DNA of 64,000 nt from Candidatus Thorarchaeota archaeon (GCA_021498125.1 JAIZWL010000001.1:773434-837433), one strand, 5' to 3'. Positions 5,087-43,568 are shown, counted from the first letter of the stretch. Notes: a model not told the origin generated them from the letters alone. Numbers and translations are program-made.

Positions 5087-5169
5087 ATTAATCAGGAAAT
5101 GTGCCCTATTATGGTATGCTTGAGAGGACCGCGCCCTCTCCTTGGCAGCCAATTAGAGGAGGCTACCAT

Positions 5170-8100
5170 ATGCGACATGTTGTATCTTTACTGTTCATAT
5201 TATTATTATTTGCGATCCCCGCGCCTATAGCGGAGCAAACTAATGCGACCACCTCTGCATCTACTTATCAAACGCCGCCAGAGACAATTTCTTTGAACTT
5301 TCAGGCTCTTTCTTCGATCTATGGTGCTGACATTCCTGTCATGGTGTCATTCGTTGATGATGTGAGTGCTTCTGTAGTTGATCGGATTTTGGCGACAGGA
5401 GTCAGATTTAGCTTTGGTTCTCCTCAACTCAGTCATGTGAATGAGTTCTATTTGCTGCGAGGAAGTGCTTCGGCTCTTGAAACTCTCATGAACACGGGAT
5501 TGGTTCGGTCAATCGATGTTCAGTCTTCGATAAACTATCTCCAATCCACACGCGATGTTTCGATTCCTGAGATCAATGCTGATGATGCGTGGAATATGTT
5601 AGATGGACTTGGACGCAATCTCACAGGCCAAGATATCCTCATTGCAGACTTGGATACGGGAGTGGACTGGAAGCATCCCGATCTCTGGTTTCCCGGGGAT
5701 ACTGCATATTCATGGATCGATTCCACTTCTGACGGAAAGCCCTCCAATGGTAGTGATTATGTGGATCTCAATGGCGACTTTAGTGGGACTGCGGACGAGG
5801 TCCTGTACTATATTGATCTGGACTCTGATGGGACATACAATACGACCACCGACTGGCTGTGGGTAGACAACATCTCTCAGAATGCCGAACCAGACCCTGG
5901 TGAACCCTTCTTTGTGGTCAACGATACAAATGGAAACGATGCTCTTGATGTTGGCGAGACCCTTGTAATGTTGACGACCCCTAAGACGAAGTATATTGTT
6001 GAGAAAGACGGCACTCCCCAGGCCGATCTTCAGGTATGGGTAAGAGGGGTCAACCTGACGGCAAGTACACATCAGGACACCGATGGTCACGGAACGGCCG
6101 TTGCAGGAATTCTACTTGGTGGGCAGCTCAATTATCGCAAGTATGTGGGTGTCGCCCCTGACTCGGAGCTTATGATGGTTCGAGTGTTGGGAAGTAGTGG
6201 TACTGCTCTCTCTGTTGAAGAAGGTCTCACGTGGGCTTACAATCATGGTGCCGATGTGATTCTCACGGAGATCGGTTCATGGACTTACGAATATCTGGAT
6301 GGCAGCGATTCCGCCGAGACCCTGATCAATACGATCGTCTCCAATGGTGTGCCTGTCATCTCCCCAGCAGGTAACTTGGGCGGGAAGGACAAGCATGCGC
6401 TGTTCAATGTTACTGCGGACACGCAGCACCAGACTGATTTTACGATTCCTGCTCCGGATGGGACCTATGTTGTATATGATATTAATAACGTCTACATTAC
6501 AGTGCTCTCGATTAATAGTACAGACTTCTGGACATGTAATTTCAGTCTGATCATGAATCTCGCAGTTTGGGGTGGACCGCCAGCACTGACGACCTATCTT
6601 CATCCGGGAAATGGCTATCTGACCTTTAATGCCGAACCCGCTGTGGTATGGGGCGGTAATACTTTCACTATCGAGTCATTCATATCGAGTTCATCTCGGA
6701 ACACGCAGATGTTGGGGATTTGGATTCATGGGACGCTGCCTACGACTGGTTCCTCACCACCTTGGCATCAAGTCAATATTACAGCTCCCTCCAACATGAC
6801 CTTCCATGCATACATCTCCGACGATCAAAGCTCATGGTCGGGAGGCTGTATCTGGAAGAGCGATATGTCCAACGATTACGAGATCACATGGCCCTCCACC
6901 GCTGATGACGCACTCAGTGTCGCAAGTTATAGGACCCGAAATATTTTCGCTGGAAATTCTGTTGGCGATATTGCCAGTTTCTCATCACGTGGTCCACGAA
7001 TTGATGAAACCCAAAAATTAGGGGTTGCAGCCCCTGGAGGGTATGACATCATCTCAGACTATAGTAATGCCTCAGCTTGGCAGGCGTGGTTCAATGGAAA
7101 CGGGCAGCTTCCATTTGGGGCGGCCTTTGGAAGTTATAGGTTATTCAGTGGCACCAGTGCCTCAGGTCCTCATGTTGCTGGTTGTGCAGCCCTAATGTTA
7201 CAACGTGACTCCTCGAAAGGGTCGAGTGTCAAAGCACTGATTCAAAATAACGCTCGCTCGGACGGGTTTACTGGAACCGTACCAAATTCGATCTGGGGGT
7301 ATGGTAAACTCGATGTCCAAGCTGCAGTTGCGGCAATTGATGTGGCCTCTCCCACGATTCACTCTGTAGGGCTTACCCCCTCTGTTGTGGAGTACTACCA
7401 GACAGTAGAGTTTGAGGCGAATGTGACAGACGACTCTTCCGTGGATAGTGTCTATCTGAAGTATCAGACCAATGGATGGACCTCTCCGACGTGGGCCAAG
7501 ATGACCTTACAGGGAACTGGTAATTTTACAGTCACAGTTGGACCCTTTGTGTATAATTCCACAGTCTTCTATACTATCTATGCCAACGACACCTCGGGCA
7601 ATGATGCAGAATCCACAGTAGCTAATTTCATTGTTGGTGATTCCGTTGCACCCTCCTTTGCTAACTTTTGGAGATCGGCGGCAACTCCCGGTGCCGGGAA
7701 TCCCGTTGAGATCCGCGTGGATGTTGTCGAGCCATCAGGTGCCTCTGGTGTTGATACAGTACTACTAAACTGGTCTGCATCAGCTGGAGTCTGGACAATC
7801 ACGACCATGACTGCCACTACTGGAGATACCTATTCAGCGACGATATCGGGGCAATCTGAAGGAACTATTGTCTATTATTATTTCATTGCAAATGACACAG
7901 CAGGTAATCTCAATGCATCTACCATTATCAGCTATACCACGGTAGCCGCAGAGAGTGTTCCTCCCTCGATCAATAGTGTGACTCGTGATCCCGAGACCCC
8001 TGATAGTACACAGAGTGTGACGGTGACTGCGAATGTCACGGACAGTTCTGGAGTGGACATGGTAATTCTCGAGTACTACAATGGCTCTGCATGGATCAAT

Positions 8101-8433
8101 GTGACCATGACTCATGTGGGTGATTATTATGAGGCCACGATCCCTGCACTCCCCGAAGGGGCAACAGTGACCTATCGTGTACATGCACGTGATAATGTGG
8201 GTAATTGGGCGGTGAGCAGCGACTTCTCATATACTGTCACCGGTGGCACTACGACCACCACAACTACCACTACCACTACGACCACCACCACCACAACAAC
8301 AGCACCCACCACGACGACACCCACCTCTTCGACATTGCCTGACAAAGCGGATCCGCTGATACTGGGAGCCATGTTCGGGATCATTCTAATTCTGATCATT
8401 CTCTCGGTCAAGTGGTCCCGGCGTGAGCAATGA
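5170..8433 (+). CDS. Subtilisin-like serine protease (peptidase S8) with a poly-Thr stalk and a C-terminal TM anchor
   Basis: Catalytic Asp 'IADLDTGVDW', His 'DTDGHGTAVAGI' and Ser 'GTSASGPHVAGCAAL'. Signal peptide 'MRHVVSLLFILLLFAIPAPIA' at the ATG at 5170, preceded by GAGGAGG (the ORF alternatively opens at 5101). Ig-like repeat domains are followed by a T19 tract and the 'LILGAMFGIILILIILSVKWSRREQ' anchor. Confidence 0.9.
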   Translation: MRHVVSLLFILLLFAIPAPIAEQTNATTSASTYQTPPETISLNFQALSSIYGADIPVMVSFVDDVSASVVDRILATGVRFSFGSPQLSHVNEFYLLRGSASALETLMNTGLVRSIDVQSSINYLQSTRDVSIPEINADDAWNMLDGLGRNLTGQDILIADLDTGVDWKHPDLWFPGDTAYSWIDSTSDGKPSNGSDYVDLNGDFSGTADEVLYYIDLDSDGTYNTTTDWLWVDNISQNAEPDPGEPFFVVNDTNGNDALDVGETLVMLTTPKTKYIVEKDGTPQADLQVWVRGVNLTASTHQDTDGHGTAVAGILLGGQLNYRKYVGVAPDSELMMVRVLGSSGTALSVEEGLTWAYNHGADVILTEIGSWTYEYLDGSDSAETLINTIVSNGVPVISPAGNLGGKDKHALFNVTADTQHQTDFTIPAPDGTYVVYDINNVYITVLSINSTDFWTCNFSLIMNLAVWGGPPALTTYLHPGNGYLTFNAEPAVVWGGNTFTIESFISSSSRNTQMLGIWIHGTLPTTGSSPPWHQVNITAPSNMTFHAYISDDQSSWSGGCIWKSDMSNDYEITWPSTADDALSVASYRTRNIFAGNSVGDIASFSSRGPRIDETQKLGVAAPGGYDIISDYSNASAWQAWFNGNGQLPFGAAFGSYRLFSGTSASGPHVAGCAALMLQRDSSKGSSVKALIQNNARSDGFTGTVPNSIWGYGKLDVQAAVAAIDVASPTIHSVGLTPSVVEYYQTVEFEANVTDDSSVDSVYLKYQTNGWTSPTWAKMTLQGTGNFTVTVGPFVYNSTVFYTIYANDTSGNDAESTVANFIVGDSVAPSFANFWRSAATPGAGNPVEIRVDVVEPSGASGVDTVLLNWSASAGVWTITTMTATTGDTYSATISGQSEGTIVYYYFIANDTAGNLNASTIISYTTVAAESVPPSINSVTRDPETPDSTQSVTVTANVTDSSGVDMVILEYYNGSAWINVTMTHVGDYYEATIPALPEGATVTYRVHARDNVGNWAVSSDFSYTVTGGTTTTTTTTTTTTTTTTTTAPTTTTPTSSTLPDKADPLILGAMFGIILILIILSVKWSRREQ
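8248..8325 (+). repeat. Coding ACC/ACT/ACG microsatellite (poly-Thr linker) inside the S8 protease gene
   Basis: Run of (ACN)n codons encoding 'TTTTTTTTTTTTTTTTTTTAPTTTTPT'. Confidence 0.85.
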
Positions 8434-14207: not shown

Positions 14208-15893
14208 ATGAGTAGAAGTGCAAGGCAGATACCAAAAGCAATTGCAGAATTTGGAGAACGACAGTTCAAAGAGACTGGGCCTCAAGCCGTTGAAGTGCTC
14301 CGCGTGAAGGCTTCGACCATCAGAAAGCATTTTCGACGTCTTGCAGGAATCGCCTATCTTGTTGCGGTCATCAGCCGAGATCGAGTCCGTGTCTATTTCT
14401 TTGACATGGCTGCAAATATGCTTCTTGGGGAAAACTTAGACCACTCCGTCTATACGAAGATCCGGAAGGCTTCGCGCCTGATCACAAAATATGAGAAGCC
14501 TCACGAACCTACGCCCGAGGAGCTTCGCATGGAGGCCACAGAAGAAATCCGTTCTCTATTGGCGAAGTCGATTAAACGAGTTGCTCGTTCTGTTGCGCGA
14601 CCGGAGCCGCCCTTTCCTGAACTCTATGTCACAAGAGAAAAGACGAGTGTCGGACAGAACTTTGGCGTTGCGTTTGAGAAAGATGGAACGGTTGTACTCG
14701 AAGAATCAGTGGTCCGGTCTCAATGGATTGATGGTATTGCTCTTCGGCTTGCTTTTCTCCTCTATCTTGATTCGGAACGACGAGATTCTGAAGTCGCCTC
14801 TTGTGTAGCTAATGGAGTTGCACTAAGTCTGCTCCGTGATGAGCCCGCAGATAGATGGTTGGCAGCTTGGTTGAAAAAGAGCAACGGTGGTGATATGACC
14901 AGATATGTGAATCATCTGATTCGTCATGTTCCAACATATTCCGGTCAAGGATTTCAGTGGTTGTTATCCTTACTAGAGCAGGCAACACCACCTCTTGAAT
15001 GGGATCAATTTAGAAACGCCTTGCATGTCATTCACAACGGTCTTGTTGTTCCTCTCGGTACTGGTGAGTATCATGTGATTAAGGGATTCTGTGATTCTCT
15101 CTCCACCCCGCGTAGGCTTGGATCAAAACGCCATGTCCTCACCTCAATTCATCTTGCTCCACGTGCAATCGGTGACCCTCTTCCACTTGGTCGGTCGATC
15201 TCGTTGACTCATAATCCGGTAGATGATCCTTCTGTCATTTGGGCTGGTGTCAAGTATGTTTCGAGTTCGGAGGTTCAGCAGTTGACAGTGGGTGAAGTAG
15301 ATGGCCCCTCACTTCGTGCCATAGAGTATGGTCTTAATCTCGAAGACATCTTTCCCAAGACCGGAGGAATACTCTCTCACGGCAAGGATCTTATCAACAT
15401 GGCTTTACGGATGATGGGGGTCGATGTTTCAGTCACAAACACTTTTTCACGAAGATTGGAATTTCATAAGGCAGTTCTGCCAACTGATCAGAAGGCTGTG
15501 TTGGAACGCTTATGTCAGGGGGGTCTCAAGATACTGTCAGACTCCCTTGTGGGGTCGCTCCAAAGAATCACTTCTCTCCTGACGAGTGGGCATCTTGTTC
15601 TTCTTCCGAATTTCAATCATATGGGGATTGACCATGATTTTCTCGTGTCTGGAAACCCTTCTGCTGTCAAGACCATTGTATCACAGAGTACAGTTGAATA
15701 CACATTATTTCTGACCGATGAGACCTCTTACGGAGTTGTTTCCGCACCATCAACGTGGAGATCACTCTTTCTTAATTCCTGTCATACGGCGGGTCTGAGA
15801 GTTCATCCCATACTGGAAACACAATCCACGAGAGGAGTGTTGCGTGATGAGACCGTCTTCCCCTCTGATTCTGACCATCTTCTGTGGACTTAA
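14208..15893 (+). CDS. Large hypothetical protein (561 aa) with no recognisable domain
   Basis: Long uninterrupted ORF, convergent with the GTPase gene and overlapping it by 4 nt. Confidence 0.5.
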   Translation: MSRSARQIPKAIAEFGERQFKETGPQAVEVLRVKASTIRKHFRRLAGIAYLVAVISRDRVRVYFFDMAANMLLGENLDHSVYTKIRKASRLITKYEKPHEPTPEELRMEATEEIRSLLAKSIKRVARSVARPEPPFPELYVTREKTSVGQNFGVAFEKDGTVVLEESVVRSQWIDGIALRLAFLLYLDSERRDSEVASCVANGVALSLLRDEPADRWLAAWLKKSNGGDMTRYVNHLIRHVPTYSGQGFQWLLSLLEQATPPLEWDQFRNALHVIHNGLVVPLGTGEYHVIKGFCDSLSTPRRLGSKRHVLTSIHLAPRAIGDPLPLGRSISLTHNPVDDPSVIWAGVKYVSSSEVQQLTVGEVDGPSLRAIEYGLNLEDIFPKTGGILSHGKDLINMALRMMGVDVSVTNTFSRRLEFHKAVLPTDQKAVLERLCQGGLKILSDSLVGSLQRITSLLTSGHLVLLPNFNHMGIDHDFLVSGNPSAVKTIVSQSTVEYTLFLTDETSYGVVSAPSTWRSLFLNSCHTAGLRVHPILETQSTRGVLRDETVFPSDSDHLLWT

Positions 15894-17554
15894 TTGATGA
15901 TCTCGATGATAGTTCCAATGGCTCGTGTGTTTGCCTCTCGCAGGACAATTCTATCATCGACGGCAATAGCCTCCGGATGCATCATGAACTTCAGGCGTAC
16001 ACGCGCAAAATCTCCGACACATAGGTAGTCGGCGTCATAGATCTTCTGAAGAACTACTGGATGTTGAATAGTATGGCACTGAAGCACAGGCGTATAGCCC
16101 ACTGCGATTCTGGTTGGATGCCGCGTCACTACGATATTTGCTTCAAATGTGCGACAGACCGTGATGCATTCCTCTTCATCGGCTATGGCCTGCCCCCTTC
16201 TGATCATGTGCTTGTCAACGTCCTTAATGTCAAACCCGAAGAGGTCTCCGACCTTGACCCCGGTCACTCTCTTCTTGAACACTTCAATACTAAAGATCCG
16301 ACCATGATGTATGTCCCCCTTTACATCAGGACCAATGGCTATGCTCTGACCAGTCTTGAAGACTCCCTGTTTGACGGTTCCTGTGATCACTACATTTGTT
16401 CCGCGGATGCCTTTGTAGACCTTATCCACATATGCCAACGCTGGTTTTGTGATAGCGTCCTCTGATGGACCTGCGGGTAGTTGTCTAAGTAGTTCGGAGA
16501 GCAGCATTACCGAGTCCGTGTCAGTTGCTGAGACATAGAGCACCGGCACAATCGTTCCATTGGTGATCTCCCTGACTATTGGTCCGATGTCTTCGGTACT
16601 CGTGATAGTGACAGGTATCTTGCCAATTTCTTTCAGTGTGAGTCGAACAATCTCCGTGACAAGATTCAGATCTTTCTCCTGCGCCCTGTCGATCTTCGAG
16701 GCGACAAGAATGAATGGTATGTTCTTGCTGGCCATCAAGATGAGATGTTCTCGAGTGATATCGTCCAGTCTTCTGATCCCCGTCTTTTCCTCCTCTTGAC
16801 GGATCAGATACGCCTCCTCGGGGATCGGCACTAACACTAATCCGTATTGAGCATCCGCACCAAGAATGCTTCTTATCATGGTCTTGCTGTATTCCTTATG
16901 TCCGGGTGCGTCAACAAATGTCAGGATCTTTGAAGATTGATCGAGGACACGAGCGGCCTCCTCCTTGTTCAGCGGGTTCTGGAGATGTAGTGCACGGCCA
17001 TCTTCGGCAAAGCCCATGAACGCCATGTGAATGTCCGCTGTCTGTCCTCTCGTAAGTTCTTGAGGATGCGTCAGGAGAAACGATCTCGCGCTTCCTGAAC
17101 CATTATCCGGCATTCCGGTGACAAGCACCCCGATCAGGGTTGACTTTCCCGAGTTCACTCGACCCGCCACATTGATGGAGCAGGTCTCTTTAATCTCTGG
17201 TGCAGCAAGTCGTTTGAGAAGGTATACTCCGACAAAGCCCTTTGGGGTCTCAACTCGTTCCGCCTCGATGATGTCCACTTCTGCCTCTTTGGTTATTTTA
17301 GATAATATCTCTTCAGCCTCTTCGATCTGTTTTTCCGATATCCCATATACCTTCCATTCTGTACCATTGATATCTTCGATTCCCACTAGAAAACGGCCTT
17401 CGAAGGGTGGCTCACAGGTCATGTATCGAATTCTCGCAACCAACCTCTGACGCCGTTCTGCTCTAAGATCCGTTTTCGTCAATGTTCTCTTGAATTCCGC
17501 ATTTCTGGTTTCGCCATTTCTTAGAATGGACTGTATCTCATCGAGGGCAGTCAT
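15890..17554 (-). CDS. GTPBP1-family translational-type GTPase (EF-Tu-like G domain plus beta-barrel domains)
   Basis: G1 'AGRVNSGKSTLIGVLVTGMPDNGSGSARS' (compare GTPBP1 'GNVDAGKSTLLGVL..G.LDNGRG'), G3 'DAPGH', G4 'ASKID', and C-terminal EF-Tu domain II/III-like barrels. Confidence 0.8.
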   Translation of the reverse strand: MTALDEIQSILRNGETRNAEFKRTLTKTDLRAERRQRLVARIRYMTCEPPFEGRFLVGIEDINGTEWKVYGISEKQIEEAEEILSKITKEAEVDIIEAERVETPKGFVGVYLLKRLAAPEIKETCSINVAGRVNSGKSTLIGVLVTGMPDNGSGSARSFLLTHPQELTRGQTADIHMAFMGFAEDGRALHLQNPLNKEEAARVLDQSSKILTFVDAPGHKEYSKTMIRSILGADAQYGLVLVPIPEEAYLIRQEEEKTGIRRLDDITREHLILMASKNIPFILVASKIDRAQEKDLNLVTEIVRLTLKEIGKIPVTITSTEDIGPIVREITNGTIVPVLYVSATDTDSVMLLSELLRQLPAGPSEDAITKPALAYVDKVYKGIRGTNVVITGTVKQGVFKTGQSIAIGPDVKGDIHHGRIFSIEVFKKRVTGVKVGDLFGFDIKDVDKHMIRRGQAIADEEECITVCRTFEANIVVTRHPTRIAVGYTPVLQCHTIQHPVVLQKIYDADYLCVGDFARVRLKFMMHPEAIAVDDRIVLREANTRAIGTIIEIIN

Positions 17555-17621
17555 TGTGTTTTACCTGACTTGTCTAACTGTCCTTGACTCTTTATGGACC
17601 AATATAAGCTCAGCTACCTTT

Positions 17622-19622
17622 CTAAGCAGCAATCACGTCTGTGAACAATTGGTTGACGATCTTAGAAGCCTCTTTGTATCGTCGGGGTTCTACCATCTCA
17701 AGATCTGCGACTGGTGGGAACTTTGTATCAAACAAGGCCGCAAATTCTCTGAGTCGGTATCGCAATTCAAATGATTCGTCCGTTGCTATGAGGACAATGA
17801 TCCGCATTTTCGTATGTTCCATCATGAGTGTGAACCCCTCATGTGTTATAGAACGAAGTTTTCCACTTGACCCCATCATCTGTCCACTAAAGGACCCGAC
17901 TGCTGCGATGAACCCTGCGATGATCGAGCTGTCCATATCAAGGGGTTCGTCAAAATAGTGAACAAACTCTGTGAGACCCGATTTTCTGTCAATTGCAATT
18001 AGCGCATAAATTATCGGTTGGTGAACCTGTCTTGGTGAACCCGGATGTTTGAATGCAGATACTCGATCAAATGATTTACCAAAGCTCGTATCGATTGGGA
18101 GTTCTTCGTGCGTCTCGATTCTTTGAAGTCTGGCAGTCGCCTCAGCCTCCATGACGTTATCTTCGGTGAATCTTGCAATCCCAAGTACACGCTCAAGATA
18201 TCCTCTTGCCTCAAATTCTCTTCCTGCAAGATTTAGCAGGTCACTCTTCAAAAGTAAAATTCGTCCTCTTAACGAGTTCATTCGTTGTTCCTTGGCAATC
18301 TGTGCAAGGTCGTCTAGGTGGTACATTGCTGAATCGATTAGGTCTGACAGATGTGATTTCTTATACATATGAATGTAGGTTCTAGCAAGTTCAAGCTTTG
18401 ATCGTATGAGCATCTCGAAAACGTTCTTTTTCTTAGCCAGCGCAAGTTCTTCCTCATAGATCTTAATTGCCTCAATATACTTTCCCTGAGCTGCATCCAT
18501 TATTCCTTTAGCGTGAAGATATGCACATTGTTCCAGTGGGTTCTCAGTTGTCTTGGCTAATTTTTCAGCCTGTTTCAAATACTCTTTTGCCTCGTCAATT
18601 CTGTCCAGCCTAGACAGAAGATCACAATAGAGGGTATAGACCTGCAATAGCCCCCGCTGTGTCTTCAGATCGAGTCGTAGTGCCTCCTTAAAATATCCCT
18701 CTGCCTCATCATAGCGACCCAATAATGTGGCGATCTCTCCAAGATTAGTGAGAGTGACCAATCGGGCTGAGTCCGTGTTCATGTATGTGAGCGCATCTTC
18801 AAAGCACTCAAGTGCGTCTTCGAGGCGTAGGGAGTATGTCATCATTGAGCCAAGGTTGTTCAGGGCCATTCCTACTCCAAGTTTGAAGGATAGTCTCCTG
18901 CTCTGATCTTTTAGTCGATAGTAATGTTCCTCTGCGGATCGCATGTTCCCTACCAGATGACTGATATTGCCACGAAGATTCTCGGTGAGCGCTAACATCA
19001 TTCTGTGGCCTTTTTTCTTAGCCATGTCCTCAAGCGTATCTGCAATTCTGGATGCCTTAGTTGCCTCTCCGACCTCTCTCAATATGGTTCCTACAACATA
19101 GAGTGTGAACAGGGTCTCTGTGAGAGGATTTTCTATTTGCTCAGGGTATGTTTCAAGTAGGTTGTCAAATTCCATGACGCATATGATGACACTCGTATCC
19201 CGCTCCGCGGCTGCCAACAGTATTTTGACAGTACTTAACCGGACCTGATCATCTACTGGCGACTCTTCACTGATGATCTTCTCTATAATCTGCTTGGTCT
19301 CTCGGAGACCTGCGATGTCTGACAATACAAATAATGCAATGGCCTTTAATGCAAGAATATGCGTGTCCTCAATATCACTGGATAGAAATAACACCTCTGC
19401 AAGGCGTCCGCGGGCCAGTGCTGCTTCCACTCCAAGGCTCAGTACGGACTTGTTTTGATTCTCTTTCATGCACTCCTTTGTAGCAAAATCAATAGCAGTA
19501 TCTGTGAAGGCAATATATTCGTCATTGTTCATTTCTATCTTCTTTTCTACTGCCCTCGTGAACTCCGCCCAAGGAATGGCCGGATCGTCTTTATAATGTG
19601 CAAATTCTTTTGGTATCTGCAA
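17622..19622 (-). CDS. TPR-repeat protein with a C-terminal longin/roadblock-like alpha/beta domain
   Basis: Central run of 34-residue TPR-like helices ('ALNNLGSMMTYSLRLEDALECFEDAL', 'YLHAKGIMDAAQGKYIEAIKIYEEEL' and others). The C-terminus shows a beta-beta-alpha-beta-beta-alpha pattern ('IIYALIAID...EFVHYF...SIIAGFIAAVGSF...LRSITHEGFTLMMEH...RIIVLIATDE'). Confidence 0.7.
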   Translation of the reverse strand: MQIPKEFAHYKDDPAIPWAEFTRAVEKKIEMNNDEYIAFTDTAIDFATKECMKENQNKSVLSLGVEAALARGRLAEVLFLSSDIEDTHILALKAIALFVLSDIAGLRETKQIIEKIISEESPVDDQVRLSTVKILLAAAERDTSVIICVMEFDNLLETYPEQIENPLTETLFTLYVVGTILREVGEATKASRIADTLEDMAKKKGHRMMLALTENLRGNISHLVGNMRSAEEHYYRLKDQSRRLSFKLGVGMALNNLGSMMTYSLRLEDALECFEDALTYMNTDSARLVTLTNLGEIATLLGRYDEAEGYFKEALRLDLKTQRGLLQVYTLYCDLLSRLDRIDEAKEYLKQAEKLAKTTENPLEQCAYLHAKGIMDAAQGKYIEAIKIYEEELALAKKKNVFEMLIRSKLELARTYIHMYKKSHLSDLIDSAMYHLDDLAQIAKEQRMNSLRGRILLLKSDLLNLAGREFEARGYLERVLGIARFTEDNVMEAEATARLQRIETHEELPIDTSFGKSFDRVSAFKHPGSPRQVHQPIIYALIAIDRKSGLTEFVHYFDEPLDMDSSIIAGFIAAVGSFSGQMMGSSGKLRSITHEGFTLMMEHTKMRIIVLIATDESFELRYRLREFAALFDTKFPPVADLEMVEPRRYKEASKIVNQLFTDVIAA

Positions 19623-19779: not shown

Positions 19780-21180
19780 TTGGAGTGTACACTGGTGTTT
19801 GATAAACTTGAGAAGGCTCTAGAACATGGCCAGGACTTGGGCGCAACATATGTGGAATTGCGTGCGGAGGACGGCTTTATCGAGTATCTGCAGATGGATG
19901 ATGGACGGATCAATGCCCTGACCCAGAGAATCGAACGGGGTGTTGCTATCCGTGCTCTCGTCAATGGTGCATGGGGTTTTGTTTCGACTGGAGAATCGGA
20001 GCAATTACCTGAAGCAGTTGTGAGTGCCTGTAAGATGGCACGAGCAGCGGCAGCCACAAGAAGAGAACCGATCACGATTGCAGAAGTAAAGACGTATGAG
20101 GACGTTGTCAAGAGTGAGGCCCGAATCGATCCTCGCCATGTTTCAGTAGAGGAAAAAGTCGGATATATGCGCGAAGTCACACAGGCGATTCAGGATTATG
20201 ACAAGCGTATAGCAGCCGTCACATTGAAGGTTCGAACAGCCTCTGGGACCAAATACATTGCGACTTCTGAAGGGACACGCCTGCAGATGCCTGTCAATCT
20301 GGTATGGGTGTATCCTTGGGTGACTGGCAAAGATGGTCCCAAGATGAGTGCTGCAAGAAATGAAGAGGCTACTACTCTTGCCGGATGGGAGTTTGTTTCA
20401 GATGTTGCTACACCCGAGGTCGTGGGTATTCCCGCAGCTCGACGTGCAATTATGCAGCTCGAGGGAGTCGCCGCAAAGGCTGGGTCATTCCCCTGTATTC
20501 TTGGTCCACGTGTCATTGGTGTGCTTGCTCATGAGGCACTTGGCCACCTAGCTGAGGCTGATCTGACGGCGACAAGCGCATTTGCCGGGAAGCTTGGTGA
20601 GGTTGTAGCTGCTGAGGGCGTGAACATGACGGATGATGGAACCGATCCTGGCAATATTGGGACCTCTAAATATGATGATGAGGGAGTGCCAGCAAGTCGG
20701 GTCGAGATCATCAAGGACTCTGTTCTCACCGAATTAATGACCAACCGCGAATATGCAGCCAAGATGGATATGAGGCCAACTGGCAACGCTCGTGCGGAGA
20801 GCTATCTATATCCTCCCATCGTCAGAATGCGGAACACGTTCTTTGAGAAGGGTGACTTTTCCTTTGAAGAACTGTTCGAAGATATTGAATTTGGATACTA
20901 TTGTGTTGATTTCAGAGGCGGACAAGCTCAGATGAATGCGAGTTTCCAAGTTGGTATTCAGGAGGCCTTTGAGATAGTGAATGGTGCTGTAGGTCGGCCT
21001 GTCAAAGATCTCTCAATCTCCGGTATTGCAACTGATTCGCTATTCAAGATCGATGCGGTCTCGAACGAGGACTTTCCATTCGAGACTGGTCGTTGCGGCA
21101 AAGGTCAGGAGGCCTTTGTATCATCTGGTGGTCCGAGTATTCGGTTTCTGAAAGGTGGCATCACCTTTGGAGGGAAATAG
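19780..21180 (+). CDS. tldD: TldD-family metalloprotease
   Basis: 'HEALGHLAEAD' (HExxxH) motif and TldD/PmbA architecture. TTG start at 19780. Confidence 0.85.
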   Translation: MECTLVFDKLEKALEHGQDLGATYVELRAEDGFIEYLQMDDGRINALTQRIERGVAIRALVNGAWGFVSTGESEQLPEAVVSACKMARAAAATRREPITIAEVKTYEDVVKSEARIDPRHVSVEEKVGYMREVTQAIQDYDKRIAAVTLKVRTASGTKYIATSEGTRLQMPVNLVWVYPWVTGKDGPKMSAARNEEATTLAGWEFVSDVATPEVVGIPAARRAIMQLEGVAAKAGSFPCILGPRVIGVLAHEALGHLAEADLTATSAFAGKLGEVVAAEGVNMTDDGTDPGNIGTSKYDDEGVPASRVEIIKDSVLTELMTNREYAAKMDMRPTGNARAESYLYPPIVRMRNTFFEKGDFSFEELFEDIEFGYYCVDFRGGQAQMNASFQVGIQEAFEIVNGAVGRPVKDLSISGIATDSLFKIDAVSNEDFPFETGRCGKGQEAFVSSGGPSIRFLKGGITFGGK

Positions 21181-21191
21181 GAGGGACTGAT

Positions 21192-22553
21192 ATGATAGAT
21201 GAAAAGAAATTGCATGAGCTCTGTGAGTTTGGTATTAAGAGAGGCGTCGATGGTGGCGCTACGCAGATCGAGATTCATGCTCAGATTGTCAATGAACTTG
21301 AGAGCAGTGTGGAACTTGGTCAGGTCAATAGTGTCAATCGAAAAGATGGTACAGAGATCGCCATCCGTCTGTACATCGGTAAGAAGATGGGCAGTACGTT
21401 CACGAACATACCCTCTGAAGAGGCGATTGGTGAGGCTGTTGATATGGCTCTGGGCGCTGCGCGTGTGGCCACAGAAGATCCGGACTTTGTGGGTCTTTCC
21501 AAGCCTGCAACATATCCTGAGATCGAGGGCCTTTGGAATGACGAAGCTGCAAAAGCCGAAGCGGAACGTGTTGTGACAGATTTGACAAAGGCTGTTGCTG
21601 GCTCTGTTGAGAAGGATCCTCAACTTGTACCCGCAATGGCCATGGTCGGCACCGTTGTCTATCGAAATGTCTACATGAATAACAATGGGGTCGACACCTC
21701 AGAACGTGGGACGATTGGGTATGTTGTTTTAGGGGCTGTTGCGCAGACCGAGTCGGGCATGACTCCTATGGTCTTTTCTTTCGACATCCGTCGGGGGATA
21801 GACTTTGACTCAGAAGCAGTGATTGACGAAGTAGTCAAGTTTCTACGCCTCTGCAAGACTCCTGTCAAGGGAAAGGGTGGTAGTCTTCCGGTAGTGATGC
21901 ACCCCATGGCATATGGTTCGATAATGAACTTCACAGTTTCCAAAGCTATCAGGGGTGATAATGTTGCACGAGGTAAATCTATCATCGGTGACAAGATTGG
22001 TGAAACCATAGCCTCACCAAAGATCACGATATACGATGATGGGACACATCCGCGAGGGATTACCACTTCTCTCTCAGATGATGAAGGTGTTCCCCGGCAA
22101 AAGACACCAATAATCGAGAATGGTGTTCTTCGATCATTCATCTGGGATACGTACTGGGCCAATAAGATGGGGGTCTCCAGCACAGGTAATGCTCGACGCG
22201 ATATGCGTCAGGGTCTGGTTGAGATCGCTCCAACTACTATGGTCATCGATCCCGGTACGAGAAGTGTTGATGACATTATCTCCGAGATCGAATACGGGTA
22301 TTATGTCCAATCTGTTCAGGGCGCACATAGTTCCAATCCCGATTCGGGTGACTTTAGCATCGTTGCAAATCCTGCGATCCTTATTGAGAATGGTCGGATG
22401 ATTGGGCAGGTTCATGGTCTGATGATCTCAGGGAATGCCTTCGATCTCCTTATGCAAGTTGCAGAGGTGGCCAACACTCCTATCTATCTCCAAGAAATGA
22501 TCGGCCCGGAAATTCTGTTCACCAATGTCAATGTTGTGGCTCGTGAGGAATAG
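21192..22553 (+). CDS. pmbA: PmbA/TldE-family protein, partner of TldD
   Basis: Pairs with TldD. ATG at 21192 lies 11 nt after the tldD stop and is preceded by GGAGGG. The ORF table opens earlier at 21093, overlapping tldD. Confidence 0.8.
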   Translation: MIDEKKLHELCEFGIKRGVDGGATQIEIHAQIVNELESSVELGQVNSVNRKDGTEIAIRLYIGKKMGSTFTNIPSEEAIGEAVDMALGAARVATEDPDFVGLSKPATYPEIEGLWNDEAAKAEAERVVTDLTKAVAGSVEKDPQLVPAMAMVGTVVYRNVYMNNNGVDTSERGTIGYVVLGAVAQTESGMTPMVFSFDIRRGIDFDSEAVIDEVVKFLRLCKTPVKGKGGSLPVVMHPMAYGSIMNFTVSKAIRGDNVARGKSIIGDKIGETIASPKITIYDDGTHPRGITTSLSDDEGVPRQKTPIIENGVLRSFIWDTYWANKMGVSSTGNARRDMRQGLVEIAPTTMVIDPGTRSVDDIISEIEYGYYVQSVQGAHSSNPDSGDFSIVANPAILIENGRMIGQVHGLMISGNAFDLLMQVAEVANTPIYLQEMIGPEILFTNVNVVAREE

Positions 22554-22702: not shown

Positions 22703-25700
22703 GTGCCAATGATCATGCCTCTTCTGGTTGTGCCTCCTGTGGCATCGATGAGGTTTACCCCTCTCCCCGGTCTACAAGTCATCGACTCGATGCTTGCGCA
22801 CGAGATTGAGAATGCACACTCCTCTAATGGTCTGGCGAGTTGTACCTCTATCCGTGCAATTCTTCAGTTCACCCATGAGTTGTCCGGCTCGCAGATTGAG
22901 CTGGCTGAATCTTTTGGGGTACGGCTCTTGAAACGAGGTTTCACTCCCATTCATGTTGGTCCTGTCTATCTTGCCGAAGTTTCGGATGAGGCATCACTTC
23001 AAACGTTGACGGCGATCGGTCTTGTTCGTGCCTCTCCCGGCTCTAAACAATTTTATCCGTCACTCTCTTCATCCGTTCCTGCTACTAAAGCAACTGAGGT
23101 TCGACATAAGCTCACAAAAGATGGTTCGGCCATTGATGGTAGCGGTACGCTTGTTGCGGTCTTGGATACTGGTGTTGACTGGTTGCATCCTTCATTTTGG
23201 CGAGTGACAACATCTCCGCTCAATGTTATCCAGAGTGGTGGGGACTACTATGTTGATCTGGATAATGACTCGGTCCCAGATTCAAATGAGGGACCGATCG
23301 TAGTCGTTCAACAACAGAATCCCTCTTCAATCGAGGTTTCGAACGAGTACATGTACATCGACGTTAAGGATAACGGTAACTTCGACTTGACCGATGGTGA
23401 CCGATGGCTTGCGGGTGTTGATGCAAATGATGATGGCGTGATCACCCTGAGCACAGAACAGGTCGTTGTTCTTGGCGAGCCCAAAGTGGCTATCTTTTAC
23501 GATCAGCACTCTGGTAATGTGTATGTGCGTGGTGTCAATCTCACTTCGAGTGCATTGTATGTGGGCGATGATCACGGGCATGGTACACATGTTGCCTCGA
23601 TAATCGCGGGTGGGCAGCCGGGCTATACTGATATGGTTGGTGTGGCCCCGGGAGCAGACATCTTGGCGATTCGGAGCCCATTAATGTCCGCTGATATTCT
23701 TGACGCTATCTTTTTCGCGGCTCAAAACGATGCCGATGTTATCAACATGTCTTTTTCCAGCTTTCTCGGTTTTCTTGATGGGACTGATGTTGAGGATGTT
23801 GCAATCAGCGAGGCCATGCGCGACTATGGGCTTATTGCATCTCTTGCATCAGGAAATCTGGCCGGTTCTCAAAAGCACGCCAGCTTTGAGGTTCAATCAG
23901 GCGCGAGGGTAAATGCGTCCTTTACAGTATCGGATCCCCCTGACTACTCATTCCTCAATATTCTATGGTACAGCTATGACGACGATGAATATGTGACTCT
24001 ATACTCCCCCAATGACGAGTCGATCGAGATAGGACCGTTCAGTGAATACACTGGAAAGAGTTTCGAGGTCAATGCAGACGATCTTCGTGCGTACGTCTTT
24101 GCAGACACGAGCATAAAGGGGACGAACCGTATTCTTGTGCAGGTCTCGCAATCGGATCACTTCTGGACTGATGGCACATGGAGGGTCGAAGTACGGAATC
24201 CTGCTGGTGAGACCGTTGATGTCAATTGCTTTGTCTGGGCTGGCGCTTGGTCTGATACGCACCTTCGTTTTACTTCACACATTGATAATTTACATACACT
24301 CAGTTCTCCCGGGACCGCCGACCTTGGGATCACCGTCGGTTCTTGTTACGACTCCTTGACCTCGATTTCCGGCTCATCAGGAAGGGGCCCCCGCATTGAC
24401 GGACGGATCAAACCAGAGGTCGTAGCTCCGGGTGTAGGGATTAATGCTGCTCGTAACAGTCTGACCAGTCTTTGGACTGTCAGGAGTGGAACCAGCATGG
24501 CTGCGCCTCATGTTGCTGGTGTTCTTGCATTGATCCGTCAGGCCTCCTCCGTTGACTCTCCTTGGATCGCATATTCAGCTCTTGTACAGGGTGCCGGAGG
24601 ACTCGCAGGTCATAAGAGCATACCATTACCCGACTGGGGATTTGGGGCGGTTGATGCATTGACATCAGTTAGACATGTTCTCTCTCTCAATGTCAGTTCG
24701 GGTTCTACTGAAGACGATTGGGCTGGGATTCCTCTTGCTTTTGGTCCCAGTGAGGACAGCTCGCTCAATGCTACTCTTGATATCGTGACCACGCGAGTGT
24801 ATCCCACAGTCTCTGAGTTAGATGTGGAGGTCACAATGCGTGCTGCTCCCGATTTCTCTGGTGGCAATACTCTGACCATTGAGTGGGACACTGATAATAA
24901 TGTGGCCACCGGTCATAATGGTGCAGAGATGAAGATCGAGATATCTGGTGGGACAAGTACACTCTATCAATGGAGCGGTACTGCTTATGTCGCCACAAGT
25001 ACGACTGTTGGGTCTCATATCTCAGGCAAGTCTGTGTTGGTCCATGTCGGCGTGGGTGCAGATCTTCCCTGCAGATTGAGTATATCCACATTCAACTCGA
25101 CTGATGCGGCCATTGATGACACAGGCTGGTTTTCTCTCACGAACACTTGGCGTCCACTCATTACAGATGCCACGATCAATCACGCAGCGTCTACATGGAC
25201 CTTCGATTTTACACCATCTGATATTGACACTCCAATCACTTCGCTCTCCTACTCATGGAAGGTGGTCGATGGAGACCTGAAATCTCTGGCGTCGGACAGT
25301 GGAGCATGTACTACGCATTTGACTCTCTCTGTAGACACAGCAGCTATCCCGACTCTTGATTCACCCAGTTTGAGTCTAAATATTTCCGATGATCTGTCCA
25401 CGCTCTATGCTCCACTTGTGATCCTCTCGGGAGGTCTGTCAGTACGGGTTGCAGTACAAGATGCCAGTCTTGATGCATATACCATAACGACAGGTCCATT
25501 CCTTAATGGGATGATCACAGGCGAGATCAACGTCACAGGTGAGATGTTCATTGACTCTGTAAGTCTGGCACTTCATTCCTCTGTTGGTTATTGGCTCAAC
25601 TTTACGCTTGAGGGCAAGGATGGTGTGTATCCGATCTCGGTCTCGGCCAATAACATCGCTGATGGGTCCTACGATGCCTACGCTGTCGTAAAGGACTTGG

Positions 25701-25834
25701 GTGGTGGCTCGATCCACTATCTGATGGGGACTCTTCACATAGTGACTGATTATTCAAGGGTTATTATCATAACCGCAGTAGTGGTAGGAGTCATAGTTAT
25801 AATCAAGCTGTACAAGATGAGAACTCCTCCCTAA
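22703..25834 (+). CDS. Subtilisin-like serine protease (S8) with a C-terminal TM anchor
   Basis: Asp 'VAVLDTGVDW', His 'GDDHGHGTHVASIIAG', Ser 'SGTSMAAPHVAGVLAL'. C-terminal 'VIIITAVVVGVIVIIKLYKMRTPP'. GTG start. Confidence 0.9.
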   Translation: MPMIMPLLVVPPVASMRFTPLPGLQVIDSMLAHEIENAHSSNGLASCTSIRAILQFTHELSGSQIELAESFGVRLLKRGFTPIHVGPVYLAEVSDEASLQTLTAIGLVRASPGSKQFYPSLSSSVPATKATEVRHKLTKDGSAIDGSGTLVAVLDTGVDWLHPSFWRVTTSPLNVIQSGGDYYVDLDNDSVPDSNEGPIVVVQQQNPSSIEVSNEYMYIDVKDNGNFDLTDGDRWLAGVDANDDGVITLSTEQVVVLGEPKVAIFYDQHSGNVYVRGVNLTSSALYVGDDHGHGTHVASIIAGGQPGYTDMVGVAPGADILAIRSPLMSADILDAIFFAAQNDADVINMSFSSFLGFLDGTDVEDVAISEAMRDYGLIASLASGNLAGSQKHASFEVQSGARVNASFTVSDPPDYSFLNILWYSYDDDEYVTLYSPNDESIEIGPFSEYTGKSFEVNADDLRAYVFADTSIKGTNRILVQVSQSDHFWTDGTWRVEVRNPAGETVDVNCFVWAGAWSDTHLRFTSHIDNLHTLSSPGTADLGITVGSCYDSLTSISGSSGRGPRIDGRIKPEVVAPGVGINAARNSLTSLWTVRSGTSMAAPHVAGVLALIRQASSVDSPWIAYSALVQGAGGLAGHKSIPLPDWGFGAVDALTSVRHVLSLNVSSGSTEDDWAGIPLAFGPSEDSSLNATLDIVTTRVYPTVSELDVEVTMRAAPDFSGGNTLTIEWDTDNNVATGHNGAEMKIEISGGTSTLYQWSGTAYVATSTTVGSHISGKSVLVHVGVGADLPCRLSISTFNSTDAAIDDTGWFSLTNTWRPLITDATINHAASTWTFDFTPSDIDTPITSLSYSWKVVDGDLKSLASDSGACTTHLTLSVDTAAIPTLDSPSLSLNISDDLSTLYAPLVILSGGLSVRVAVQDASLDAYTITTGPFLNGMITGEINVTGEMFIDSVSLALHSSVGYWLNFTLEGKDGVYPISVSANNIADGSYDAYAVVKDLGGGSIHYLMGTLHIVTDYSRVIIITAVVVGVIVIIKLYKMRTPP

Positions 25835-27140: not shown

Positions 27141-30032
27141 TCACACGATATCTGGTGGATTGCCTCTATCCTCGACTGGGATCTCCCATTCGTTTTGTTG
27201 GGACATCCGGCGTCTACCTCTTCCTTTTCCATACTTGATGAATGCCACATAACACAGACCGACCACGACTATGATCAGTAGGCCCGTGGTCACTGATGTG
27301 ATAAATACGTCATCCGCTGCTTGAACTTGGATAAGAATGGTCTTTTCGTAGACACGTAGGTGACCAGTTGAGTCATATGCCTGTACATAGATGTGATAGA
27401 ATCCGCCCATGTCAATGACAAAGCTCGTTGCAAATTTATACCCTAATGACTCGATGACATCACTTGTCACGTTTGTACCATCTGGCTTTTCAATGTGGAC
27501 GGCCACGGATTGTAAGTCCTCATCAAAGATATATACGGTAAGGTTCGCGGTATCGCCGATTCTGCCTGCTTCAAAATCCACTCCATAGATCCGCGGAGAA
27601 ACGGGGATAATGGACTGTGCAAGGTTGCGGACAAATTGTAGATTATCGGCATTCATTTCTGTAGCCTTATTGATGATGTCATCATACAGCGTCGAGCCAT
27701 CTGCAATGGCAACGACTCTTCCGCGTCCAACATTTACTTCGGCAATCAATGCATGAGTCTTTGCAGCATCTGTCCAGAGAAGGCCTCTCGCACCTGCAAC
27801 GGACGGATCAATACTTAGTGTTCCTCCATAGACGATGTAGAGGTTTCTGACATCATCAACGAGTGGATCGTTTTCTACAGCCCCGCCATAATCTGCTCCA
27901 TAGACAAGGCCCTCTCCACTAGGTCCCACACCAATACTGTTCTTCTCACACTGAATTCCATACGGTGCTAAGATCTTGTTGTAGTCCGCCATATTGTATG
28001 ATGCATTGTGATAGACGGGGTCATAGTATTCTGAGAGGATGAGTAGCGTTCCTCCATCTCTCACGTACTCATGTATTGCATTGATTTCGGAGTCGGTGTA
28101 ATCAAGTTCTGTGTCCATGATCATGAACGATTCCGAATTTGATAGATCGTCAGGTGTTAGGTGCGATGTAAGCCAGCTCTTCTCTAGGCGGTCTGTGATC
28201 ATGCCTGCCTCTCTCAATTCCTGTCCGAAATAGTTGTAGTACCTTGGGTCATCAGGATCGTCATCAGATTGGTGGAGCATATCGACCAGAAGGCGACCTC
28301 CGTAAGTAGTGATCGAGTACGAGATGTCTAACGACGCGATAATCTCAGTTCCTACAACTAGTGACAGATTTCCCGTATATGTGCCCACGGCAGAGAGCGG
28401 AAGATTGCCTGAGATGTTCATGCCAATGCTGAAGTACGAATATCCTGTCTGAACAGATACTATGTTCGTTGATACATTAACATAATTAGTTGCATTACCC
28501 GACATGACTATGTCTACTTTTCCACGGTTCACGGTCGATATGATCGTGACCTTCTGGTTGGGCCTGTCATCACCAACGATGAGCACAGAAGACCCCTCGG
28601 GAAGAGTAGGATATCTAAGAGGTGTCATTAGTGTGATTATTCGAGAGGTCTCATTGATCAGTGTGGCTGACCGATTTGCATTGACCAGCCCCATTCCTTG
28701 GGCCATTGCATCAAGGTCCAGATCTGTTGCGCCAGCCATCAAGAATGCTTTGACCGCCAGTGGCGATAAACCAGGATATTGCTGTACCAATATTGCTACT
28801 ACACCTGCTACTAATGGTGTGGCAACAGAAGTACCCGACCACATGGTGTAGTAGTTCCCAAATTGGGTTGAATTATAAATTATATATTCACTAGGATTTG
28901 CCCCCGACCATCTTCCTGAAACGACATTTTCGCCTGGGGCAATTACATCCGGTTTGACTACCCGCCCACGCGGATAATGGACGTTTCGCACTACTGGCCC
29001 ACGCGAGCTAAACTGTGCAATCGCATCTGCTCCGTTGGAGGCACCCACAGTAATGGCCTCTTCAGTGATTCCTGGTGCATTAATCGTTTCTGTTGCAGGT
29101 CCGGAATTACCTGCTGCTATGACTACAGCAACTCCGTTGCTAATCGCGGCCTTACTGGCCTCGACTGAGGGATCTGCGAACATACTATCGGTCCATAGGC
29201 CTCCAATGCTCATGCTGATGACATCAACGCCCTGGTCCACAGCAAATTCAATGCCTTGTGCAATAATCGAGTCGTCCGTTGTTCCTGATGAGTCAAGGAT
29301 CTTTACGATGAGTAGATCTGCTCCTGGGGCCATGCCACTGTAATTTCCAGTACCCATATTTGTACCAGCCGCAAGCCATGCAGTACCAGTACCATGACCA
29401 TTATCGTCGTATGAATTGATGCCGTCTGCGGGATTCATATCGTCGTGATTGTTCACAAAATCTTTGAATCCGATAATCTTCCCTGCGAGATCGGGGTGAC
29501 CGCCCCACGCCCCACTATCAAGAAGTGCAATGGTAGTCCCTGAGCCATTATATCCCTTTTCCCAGAGTGGATTAATATTGAGTATCTTGTCCGGATGGAC
29601 ATATCCACTGTTCGACTTAGCAGCAATGCCATCTACTGGATCCTCTGCAAGAAGACCTACCTTTATGTCGAGAGTGATGGCGTTCACATACCCTGAGACT
29701 GCGAGTCGTACGATTGCCTGATTGGTTGCATAGGCGGAAACCATTGGAATGAGATGGAACACATGTCGTATCTCCACTCCCTTTGTCTCATACTGTTCGA
29801 CTACTTGCTCCATGTATGAGGAAGGTGTTCCATCAGGAAACTGAAAGACTACAGGTATTCGCTGACTGGTGCATTGCTCTTTTATTGCATTTTGAAGCGA
29901 TGGCGCAATAATTGACGGAACACTGTTGTTTGTCTTGACCGAAATACCTGATACTAAGGCTGGTATTGGTATTAACATAATTGTAATCAACAAAGCTGCA
30001 ATGAATTTGGTTCGATATCTGATCGGCGTCAT
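27141..30032 (-). CDS. Subtilisin-like serine protease (S8) with a C-terminal TM anchor and a short cytoplasmic tail
   Basis: Asp 'IALLDSGAWGGHPDL', His 'DDNGHGTGTAWLAAG', Ser 'WSGTSVATPLVAGVVAIL'. Signal/TM 'FIAALLITIMLIPIPALVSG' after the Met at 30032 (the ORF extends to 30167). C-terminal 'LLIIVVVGLCYVAFIKYGKGRGRRR'. Confidence 0.9.
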   Translation of the reverse strand: MTPIRYRTKFIAALLITIMLIPIPALVSGISVKTNNSVPSIIAPSLQNAIKEQCTSQRIPVVFQFPDGTPSSYMEQVVEQYETKGVEIRHVFHLIPMVSAYATNQAIVRLAVSGYVNAITLDIKVGLLAEDPVDGIAAKSNSGYVHPDKILNINPLWEKGYNGSGTTIALLDSGAWGGHPDLAGKIIGFKDFVNNHDDMNPADGINSYDDNGHGTGTAWLAAGTNMGTGNYSGMAPGADLLIVKILDSSGTTDDSIIAQGIEFAVDQGVDVISMSIGGLWTDSMFADPSVEASKAAISNGVAVVIAAGNSGPATETINAPGITEEAITVGASNGADAIAQFSSRGPVVRNVHYPRGRVVKPDVIAPGENVVSGRWSGANPSEYIIYNSTQFGNYYTMWSGTSVATPLVAGVVAILVQQYPGLSPLAVKAFLMAGATDLDLDAMAQGMGLVNANRSATLINETSRIITLMTPLRYPTLPEGSSVLIVGDDRPNQKVTIISTVNRGKVDIVMSGNATNYVNVSTNIVSVQTGYSYFSIGMNISGNLPLSAVGTYTGNLSLVVGTEIIASLDISYSITTYGGRLLVDMLHQSDDDPDDPRYYNYFGQELREAGMITDRLEKSWLTSHLTPDDLSNSESFMIMDTELDYTDSEINAIHEYVRDGGTLLILSEYYDPVYHNASYNMADYNKILAPYGIQCEKNSIGVGPSGEGLVYGADYGGAVENDPLVDDVRNLYIVYGGTLSIDPSVAGARGLLWTDAAKTHALIAEVNVGRGRVVAIADGSTLYDDIINKATEMNADNLQFVRNLAQSIIPVSPRIYGVDFEAGRIGDTANLTVYIFDEDLQSVAVHIEKPDGTNVTSDVIESLGYKFATSFVIDMGGFYHIYVQAYDSTGHLRVYEKTILIQVQAADDVFITSVTTGLLIIVVVGLCYVAFIKYGKGRGRRRMSQQNEWEIPVEDRGNPPDIV

Positions 30033-30172
30033 TTCGTGGGGCCCTTCTACTGATGCGTTTATCAATCTGTAATTAAGCATTCCTTTGACTGCTGTTTTGA
30101 TACTCGGTCTCTCCGAGCAGTGAAGTCTTATTATTTGATTGTATATAGATATCTGAGTGCAATGCACATTGA

Positions 30173-39686: not shown

Positions 39687-40100
39687 GTGGGCTTCCTTAT
39701 GGTCTTTGTCAGTCGATGCAGAAATGATAAAAAGCAGTACACTCTTTCAACAAATGAGGCAAGGACAGTGAGTATCTCGGCACGATTGACATTCTCACAG
39801 GTTGGACTGTTTGTTTCTATAATTGTATATCTTGCAGTCAGAGGATTCTTTGTAGTTCTCAATATAGGTCTTCTATGGACCCAAGCGGGAGGATTTCTTA
39901 GTATTGCCTTTCCTCTGATCCCTGTTATTGTGATGGGCTTTACTGCATGTGTCGTGTCTTATGGTTACTCCTATCTTGGTCTCTGGGTGATGGATCATAA
40001 TCAACCGATCCTTGGTATCCTGCTCATCTTTCTCGGTGTGATCCTTATTCCCGGTGCCCTCGGCGTCTATTCTTGGGTCTATTTTCCGTTCCTCACGTGA
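39687..40100 (+). CDS. Possible small integral membrane protein (3-4 TM)
   Basis: Hydrophobic helices. Overlaps the 3' end of the Sir2 gene by 8 nt on the opposite strand. Confidence 0.35.
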   Translation: MGFLMVFVSRCRNDKKQYTLSTNEARTVSISARLTFSQVGLFVSIIVYLAVRGFFVVLNIGLLWTQAGGFLSIAFPLIPVIVMGFTACVVSYGYSYLGLWVMDHNQPILGILLIFLGVILIPGALGVYSWVYFPFLT

Positions 40101-40842: not shown

Positions 40843-41049
40843 ACGAACTGAATGGTCAGTGTAACACTTCTTAGTTTCGGTTTACGAAAATAGCTATGTC
40901 GAAAGCTTTTTCTTTTGATGGGCTTCAAGACCGGACGAGTCACCGAGGGAGGCTGAAACCATATATTCAGCGCCCCGGCCGTATCTTTGGTTCGGCTGGC
41001 TTCTGTACTTGTTTCCCTTTACATCACTACAGGCAAGAGTGTGCCGAGA

Positions 41050-41649: not shown

Positions 41650-41650
41650 A

Positions 41651-43552: not shown

Positions 43553-43568
43553 GGGATGGTGATGCTCC

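Follow-up and report, generated by a model that had tools for sequence, protein, structure and literature searches.

Do a translational GTPase and the protein encoded immediately upstream of it in a Thorarchaeota genome form a regulatory module, or are they neighbours that act separately? We addressed this question in a 64,000-nt stretch of DNA from this Asgard archaeon (the window, to whose full length all window coordinates refer). The original prediction had proposed that a 554-aa GTPase resembling GTPBP1 and a 666-aa protein made of tetratricopeptide repeats (TPRs), and ending in a longin- or roadblock-like fold, constitute a GTPase-plus-regulator module. Both open reading frames were found with the sizes that it gave, on the same strand, and the gene for the TPR-longin protein lies upstream of the GTPase gene across a 67-bp spacer. 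The annotation of a 95%-identical locus (GCA_054387575.1) places the gene boundaries identically, and full-length orthologues are numerous for both genes; because these orthologues are so many, we take both open reading frames to be real genes and not chance occurrences. The pairing was said to be undescribed, and indeed no description of it was found in the literature searched. The predicted adjacency was thus borne out, but the module built on it was neither refuted nor supported beyond an adjacency that is limited to one lineage. Our data suggest that the locus probably holds two genes that act separately, one for an Asgard longin scaffold and one for a translation factor, and whose proximity is inherited.

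The distribution of the two genes was examined by a GTPase scan in which each GTDB species was represented by a single genome; this recovered 60 loci with GTPases 54-86% identical to that of the window, which were then searched with a longin-domain profile. Upstream sequence was sufficient in 52 loci, and in 27 of these the TPR-longin gene is the immediate upstream neighbour of the GTPase gene, on the same strand, whereas in the other 25 it is not found there; the gaps between the two genes range from 2 to 148 bp and are mostly 30-75 bp. When metagenomes were scanned with TPR-longin orthologues, the GTPase gene followed in all 16 contigs that reached far enough downstream. Conserved synteny, which the original prediction had made a check on its proposal, therefore holds in 27 of 52 Thorarchaeota species genomes, but it is limited to part of Thorarchaeota, is absent outside this clade and is shared by everything around the pair. 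The order of nine genes is conserved: S8 protease, TldD2, TldD1, TPR-longin (where present), GTPase, a 561-aa protein, a 163-aa protein, an MGMT-like protein and an SQHop-like protein. Because this whole block keeps its order, adjacency is not specific to the pair, and the GTPase is accompanied more steadily by the gene for the 561-aa protein than by the TPR-longin gene. The diverged GTPases (54-63% identical) sit in unrelated contexts.

On a GTPase tree of 47 taxa, the TPR-longin gene changes between presence and absence at least ten times, and the GTPase is retained in every locus. In locus L025 (positions 1132-1275), all that survives of the TPR-longin gene, upstream of the GTPase promoter, is a 3'-terminal remnant of about 75 nt, the deletion scar of a recent loss. 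Given the scattered presence and absence on the tree together with this scar, repeated loss probably accounts for all of the changes. The TldD pair is itself an indel, and all four combinations of presence and absence of TldD and TPR-longin occur among related genomes, including TPR-longin without the TldD pair (L075) and the TldD pair without TPR-longin (L021). In a mirror-tree comparison, the distance matrices of the TPR-longin protein and the GTPase correlated with an r of 0.92, control pairs within the block gave 0.87-0.89, and the partial correlations were alike. Co-evolution was rejected as evidence for a module: the signal looked striking with weak controls (r of 0.95, partial correlation of 0.82) but was no longer distinctive when four control genes were used. 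The locus may serve as a worked example of how conserved adjacency inside one archaeal order can be gene-order inertia.

The spacer between the two genes holds a TATA-like box, which in the window lies 13 nt past the stop codon of the TPR-longin gene and 54 nt before the ATG of the GTPase gene. A box of the form CTTATA[ATC], or gCTTATA(A/T) with the preceding base, is found 46-47 nt before the GTPase ATG in most loci (seen in L009-L067); of the loci with the TPR-longin gene, 20 of 25 have the box, as do 18 of the 23 that lack the gene. In many loci, GGAG is found near position -10 of the GTPase ATG. Together these elements look like an archaeal TATA promoter and a ribosome-binding site; the box is the putative promoter of the GTPase gene itself.

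The GTPase matches the original description of a GTPBP1-like enzyme with EF-Tu-like barrels. Its closest relative in the PDB is human GTPBP1 on the ribosome (9ypg; E 8.4e-57, 196 bits, query residues 63-553), and its matches to structures of a/eEF1A are far weaker (E about 1e-22, 81 bits). The NCBIfam models for EF1A, EF-Tu, SelB and IF2-gamma all give scores well under their cut-offs. The protein is also closer to GTPBP1 than to SelB, IF2-gamma or Hbs1/eRF3. The G domain contains the P-loop GRVNSGKS, DAPGH, SKID and the GTPBP-type 'DNGSGSARSFLLTHPQELTRGQT' segment, and the residues of these motifs are invariant in 20 orthologues. Two hallmarks of GTPBP1 (PMC12775451) are represented in the alignment to 9ypg. 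One is the GTPBP1-specific N-terminal domain, of which 9ypg residues 133-190 pair with query residues 63-123; the other is the 'DNG.G.AR...H' segment (in the window, 'GMPDNGSGSARSFLLTHPQELTRGQT'), which takes the place of helix alpha-2. Among the models for the two beta-barrel domains, PF03144 scored above its cut-off (31.2 bits) and PF03143 and PF22594 just under theirs. Since the best match is GTPBP1 and the GTPBP-specific segment is conserved, we assign the protein to GTPBP and not to EF1A: judged by its sequence, it is a member of the known archaeal GTPBP family. We found 344 homologues, of which the best 120 listed are 62-95% identical to the window protein, mostly 554 aa long and mostly labelled Thorarchaeota. 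The archaeal GTPBP subfamily has been defined and is widespread in archaea, with the function of the GTPBP family being largely obscure (Atkinson 2015, PMC4342817), and no characterised archaeal member was found in the literature surveyed. The carboxypeptidase AGTPBP1, which came up in the literature searched, is unrelated to archaeal GTPBP.

In domain order, the window GTPase is like GTPBP1, GTPBP2 and archaeal GTPBP, with an N-terminal domain, an EF-Tu-type G domain and two beta-barrels. It differs from human GTPBP1 in lacking the disordered N- and C-terminal tails, in an extra insertion of about 20 residues after DAPGH and in its first 60 residues, which are specific to the archaeal proteins. 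This archaeal extension (17375-17554, minus strand) carries an invariant 'GE..N.EFK' (GETRNAEFKR in the window) and is unaligned to GTPBP1, the PDB alignment beginning at residue 63. Residues 15-103 weakly match PF04326 SLFN_AlbA_2 (Schlafen; E 0.025), and the N-terminal extension might be a nucleic-acid-binding module.

The upstream protein was predicted to consist of TPR-like repeats, and it does: Pfam TPR-family matches cover approximately residues 180-490, and a full-length AlphaFold2 model built on a wider family alignment (predicted local distance difference test (pLDDT) 87.2, predicted TM-score (pTM) 0.83) shows helices over residues 1-522, a short linker at 523-537 and a longin domain at 538-665. 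Foldseek matches of the solenoid are TPR scaffolds, namely OGT, LGN/Pins, subunits of APC/C, CTR9 and Ski3. LGN/Pins, OGT, APC/C subunits and Ski3 share a superhelical TPR solenoid with the window protein, a likeness that is generic (TM 0.2-0.38, query-normalised), and none of them has a longin domain.

The C-terminal domain was also modelled alone, from an alignment of 39 relatives (pLDDT 87.8, pTM 0.83). The model has strands at residues 538-545 and 551-556, a helix at 565-583, strands at 591-594, 597-603 and 607-613, and helices at 618-634 and 646-665, giving a five-stranded sheet with the topology b-b-a-b-b-b-a-a and no N-terminal helix. The strands and helices that had been predicted from the sequence agree one for one with this model, except that 'LRSITHEGFTLMMEH' forms two strands and that one further helix follows at 646-665. 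A Foldseek search of the PDB returned 36 matches at E<=0.001, mostly longins (best E 1e-5 to 1e-3, TM 0.5-0.66), including zeta- and delta-COP, sigma- and mu-adaptins, TRAPP Bet5 and Trs23, Fuzzy/Inturned, Mon1-Ccz1 and VAMP7; Sec22b stood at rank 44, just above E 0.001. Roadblock folds (MglB, LAMTOR and MP1/p14) ranked lower, at 26, 34 and 36. Although MglB-like roadblock/LC7 domains and LAMTOR have a fold related to that of the window domain, their matches are weaker, and roadblock/LC7 domains have an N-terminal helix before strand 1 and a single C-terminal helix, neither of which is seen in the window domain. Because the modelled domain lacks an N-terminal helix and has two C-terminal helices, it is, as predicted by AlphaFold2, a longin rather than a roadblock domain. 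Of the two folds offered by the original prediction, longin is thus upheld by topology and Foldseek rank, and roadblock is not.

Sequence comparisons gave a sparser picture. No Pfam model matched the longin domain of the window protein alone, and a search of it by sequence against the PDB gave only noise; in a sequence/profile search of the PDB, Bet5 was marginal (E 0.15), and profile matches to the designed helical protein 4D2 were discarded as low-complexity helix. When the 39 relatives were scanned singly, 14 matched PF19036 Fuz_longin_1, the first longin of Fuzzy/Mon1/HPS1 (best E 8.7e-6), five matched PF19031, two PF03259 Robl_LC7 and one PF13774, and there was also one Sybindin match. 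The small adaptor subunits (sigma-adaptin and zeta-COP), TRAPP Bet5 and Trs23, and the first longins of Fuzzy/Mon1 and Inturned/Ccz1 have the same topology as the window domain, but they share only 8-19% sequence identity with it and, unlike the window protein, none of them is fused to a TPR solenoid. The tri-longin Rab exchange factors (Mon1-Ccz1, Fuzzy-Inturned and HPS1-HPS4) are heterodimers with three tandem longins per subunit, whereas the window protein has one.

Word-indexed searches with the longin domain or its alignment gave almost no matches, and its relatives came from an exhaustive search of 1.8 billion representative proteins, which identified 138. The longin domain is C-terminal in 124 of these, and about 55 are 620-800 aa long. 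Orthologues of the window protein are colinear with it from end to end, at 46-87% identity. Colinearity still holds at 21-27% identity, for the 650-700-aa relatives found in Heimdall-, Hod- and Thorarchaeota. The proteins of this family are labelled only 'tetratricopeptide repeat protein' or 'hypothetical'. From these alignments and the predicted structure, the 666-aa protein is a member of an Asgard-wide family of 650-700 aa with a TPR solenoid of about 520 residues and one C-terminal longin domain. For five related TPR-longin genes from other Asgard genomes, no GTPase gene of any kind lies within 5-6 kb, in line with a published statement that Asgard genes for small GTPases do not, as a rule, share operons with longin or roadblock genes (PMC10933270). 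Members of this longin family are also found at the N terminus of Thorarchaeota proteins of about 410-430 aa (among P0151, P0180 and P0190) and at the C terminus of 1143-aa proteins with Ig-like domains from Hod- and Promethearchaeota (P0190 for Ig-like plus longin), and these N- and C-terminal placements therefore indicate domain shuffling.

Roadblock and longin families are abundant in Asgard archaea, with 130 orthologous groups and many lineage-specific fusions, and TPR and Ig-like domains are among the extra domains of Asgard longin proteins, according to Liu et al. (2020 preprint) and Makarova et al. (2024, PMC10936438). The multidomain longin proteins described there are like the window protein in placing longin domains in architectures absent from eukaryotes. 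In the text examined, the fusions described centre on Vps28-C, adaptin-appendage and two-component domains, and a fixed family of 650-700 aa with a TPR solenoid and a C-terminal longin is not singled out. A useful result is therefore a well-delimited, Asgard-wide TPR-solenoid-longin family in which, for the window protein, Pfam misses the longin domain.

In the explanation that we favour, the two proteins would act apart. By homology, the GTPase would most likely bind GTP and a tRNA and enter the ribosomal A site, and it would most likely be switched on by the ribosome itself and not by a protein activator; its gene would have a TATA-type promoter to itself, situated in the short spacer. The TPR-longin protein would likeliest be a scaffold, with the groove of its TPRs holding a peptide or protein partner, and its longin domain would likeliest have another longin or roadblock domain as its partner, or else bind a small GTPase of the Ras superfamily whose gene lies elsewhere, through the conserved 'SG(F/L)ISA' helix and 'LRSIxHEG' strand. 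We infer the tRNA and ribosome activities, as well as any binding of a GTPase by the longin domain. On the simpler reading of the gene order, the TPR-longin gene arose at the GTPase site and decays there. Several points weigh against separate action. No TPR-longin orthologue was seen away from the GTPase in the 27 species genomes or the 16 metagenome contigs, and its orientation and position relative to the GTPase never vary; the asymmetry by which the GTPase often occurs without TPR-longin, and never the reverse, would suit an accessory partner. The gene is kept beside the GTPase where the TldD pair has been deleted (L075). The window spacer has no terminator-like T-run, so read-through into the GTPase gene is possible, and in the L004/L017 lineage, with a 2-bp gap and the TATA box missing, the arrangement looks operonic. 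Finally, the small-GTPase role of the longin domain is drawn by analogy only.

These points of constant placement, the L075 deletion and the L017 gap would favour a true module, in which the TPR-longin protein is an accessory partner (regulator, localiser or adaptor) of the GTPBP-type GTPase in Thorarchaeota. With its longin domain docked on the G domain, it would recruit a ribosome-associated or RNA-decay partner through the TPR solenoid, and, being dispensable, it would often be lost. Longin and roadblock domains are known as GTPase platforms (PMC10933270). We nevertheless consider such a module unlikely, since the changes in TPR-longin presence are most simply explained by repeated loss from loci that always keep the GTPase, the GTPase has its own conserved promoter-like box and occurs in other contexts outside the clade, the whole block keeps its order with the 561-aa neighbour as the steadier one, the five related TPR-longin genes lack a GTPase neighbour and the distance-matrix correlation does not stand above those of the controls. 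Moreover, the known partners of longins are small Ras-like GTPases, and translational GTPases are activated by the ribosome. In its most specific form, in which the GTPBP-type GTPase has the TPR-longin protein as a dedicated though dispensable partner, and this protein is the first longin platform for a translational GTPase, the proposal seems improbable, but it keeps a small share of our confidence because a TPR-longin orthologue was never seen away from the GTPase. By analogy, such a partner might couple the sensing of stalled ribosomes to an RNA-decay or proteolysis factor held by the TPRs; the TPR protein Ski3 works with the GTPase-like Ski7, a loose parallel that we regard as a lead. If the coupling were true, it would extend longin platforms from small GTPases to translation factors and provide a first handle on archaeal GTPBP function, which was largely obscure in a 2015 survey (PMC4342817).

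It is alternatively conceivable, although doubtful, that the longin domain has no GTPase partner at all and serves a pure scaffold, either as a dimerisation or assembly module, as sigma-adaptin and zeta-COP do in a solenoid, or as a cap that closes the TPR groove within the same molecule. In Foldseek, the longin domain is matched best by the small longin subunits of AP and COPI, which bind solenoid subunits and not GTPases, the pTM of the full-length model suggests that the position of the longin domain is fixed relative to the solenoid, and some longins, for example in SNAREs, do not regulate GTPases (PMC10933270). However, members of the family match the models for the first longins of Fuzzy/Mon1 and Inturned/Ccz1, the eukaryotic members of which are Rab exchange factors. 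A function of the TPR-longin protein with the TldD/PmbA pair and the S8 protease, for instance as a substrate adaptor, was suggested by the head-to-head arrangement of the TPR-longin gene and the TldD pair, which the window shares with many related loci. We set this link aside as very improbable: the TldD pair and TPR-longin vary independently, as the four combinations that include L075 and L021 indicate, and the five relatives that were checked have no such neighbours. The preferred explanation therefore keeps the scaffold and the translation factor as separate genes, and the features on which it was built are collected in Table 1.

Table 1. Features of the gene pair and its immediate neighbours, in coordinates of the 64,000-nt window.
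Feature	Position	Strand	Basis and remarks
Archaeal GTPBP-family translational GTPase, 554 aa	15890-17554	-	ATG start; open reading frame, Pfam, PDB
GTPase N-terminal region, about aa 1-122	17189-17554	-	Alignment to 9ypg; weak Pfam match
GTPase G domain, aa 124-359	16478-17185	-	PF00009, E 4.6e-22; alignment to 9ypg
GTPase EF-Tu-like beta-barrel domains II and III, aa 388-552	15899-16393	-	PF03144, PF03143, PF22594
CTTATAT, TATA-like box, putative GTPase promoter	17602-17608	-	In the 67-bp spacer
TPR-longin protein, 666 aa	17622-19622	-	TTG start; open reading frame, orthologues, AlphaFold2
TPR helical-repeat solenoid, aa 1-522, about 28 helices	18057-19622	-	Pfam TPR_12, TPR_MalT and others; AlphaFold2 model
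C-terminal longin domain, aa 538-665 (b1 b2 a1 b3 b4 b5 a2 a3)	17628-18011	-	AlphaFold2, Foldseek, Pfam on relatives
Conserved 561-aa protein, function unassigned; context gene outside the proposed module	14208-15893	+	Convergent with GTPase gene; 3' ends overlap by 4 nt
TldD/PmbA metallopeptidase gene pair, context	19780-22553	+	Pfam; divergent from TPR-longin gene

Wherever a Thorarchaeota locus has the syntenic block and extends far enough downstream, the 561-aa protein is encoded next to the GTPase. Searches with Pfam, NCBIfam and PDB profiles gave no match for it. Its sequence is 40-48% identical among Thorarchaeota loci, with many invariant Arg, His and Trp residues.

Two loci of a diverged lineage with a different context, L005 (2746-5380) and L006 (2869-5502), contain an apparent operon 2-4 kb upstream of the GTPase gene, which encodes unknown proteins of 93, 124 and 472 aa and a Ras/Roc-like small GTPase; an Arf-like GTPase gene lies nearby. 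The small proteins of this operon could be roadblock or longin partners. Elsewhere in the window, three large S8 subtilase genes (1008-1110 aa) lie inside 25 kb, at 5101-8433 (plus strand), 22703-25834 (plus strand) and 27141-30167 (minus strand), and the product of the first weakly matches the carbohydrate-binding module CBM_56. A grpE-dnaK-dnaJ chaperone cluster at 40987-44609 (plus strand) has a Sir2-family gene just upstream (40093-40842) and a PadR-plus-HAAS gene pair downstream (45206-46014).

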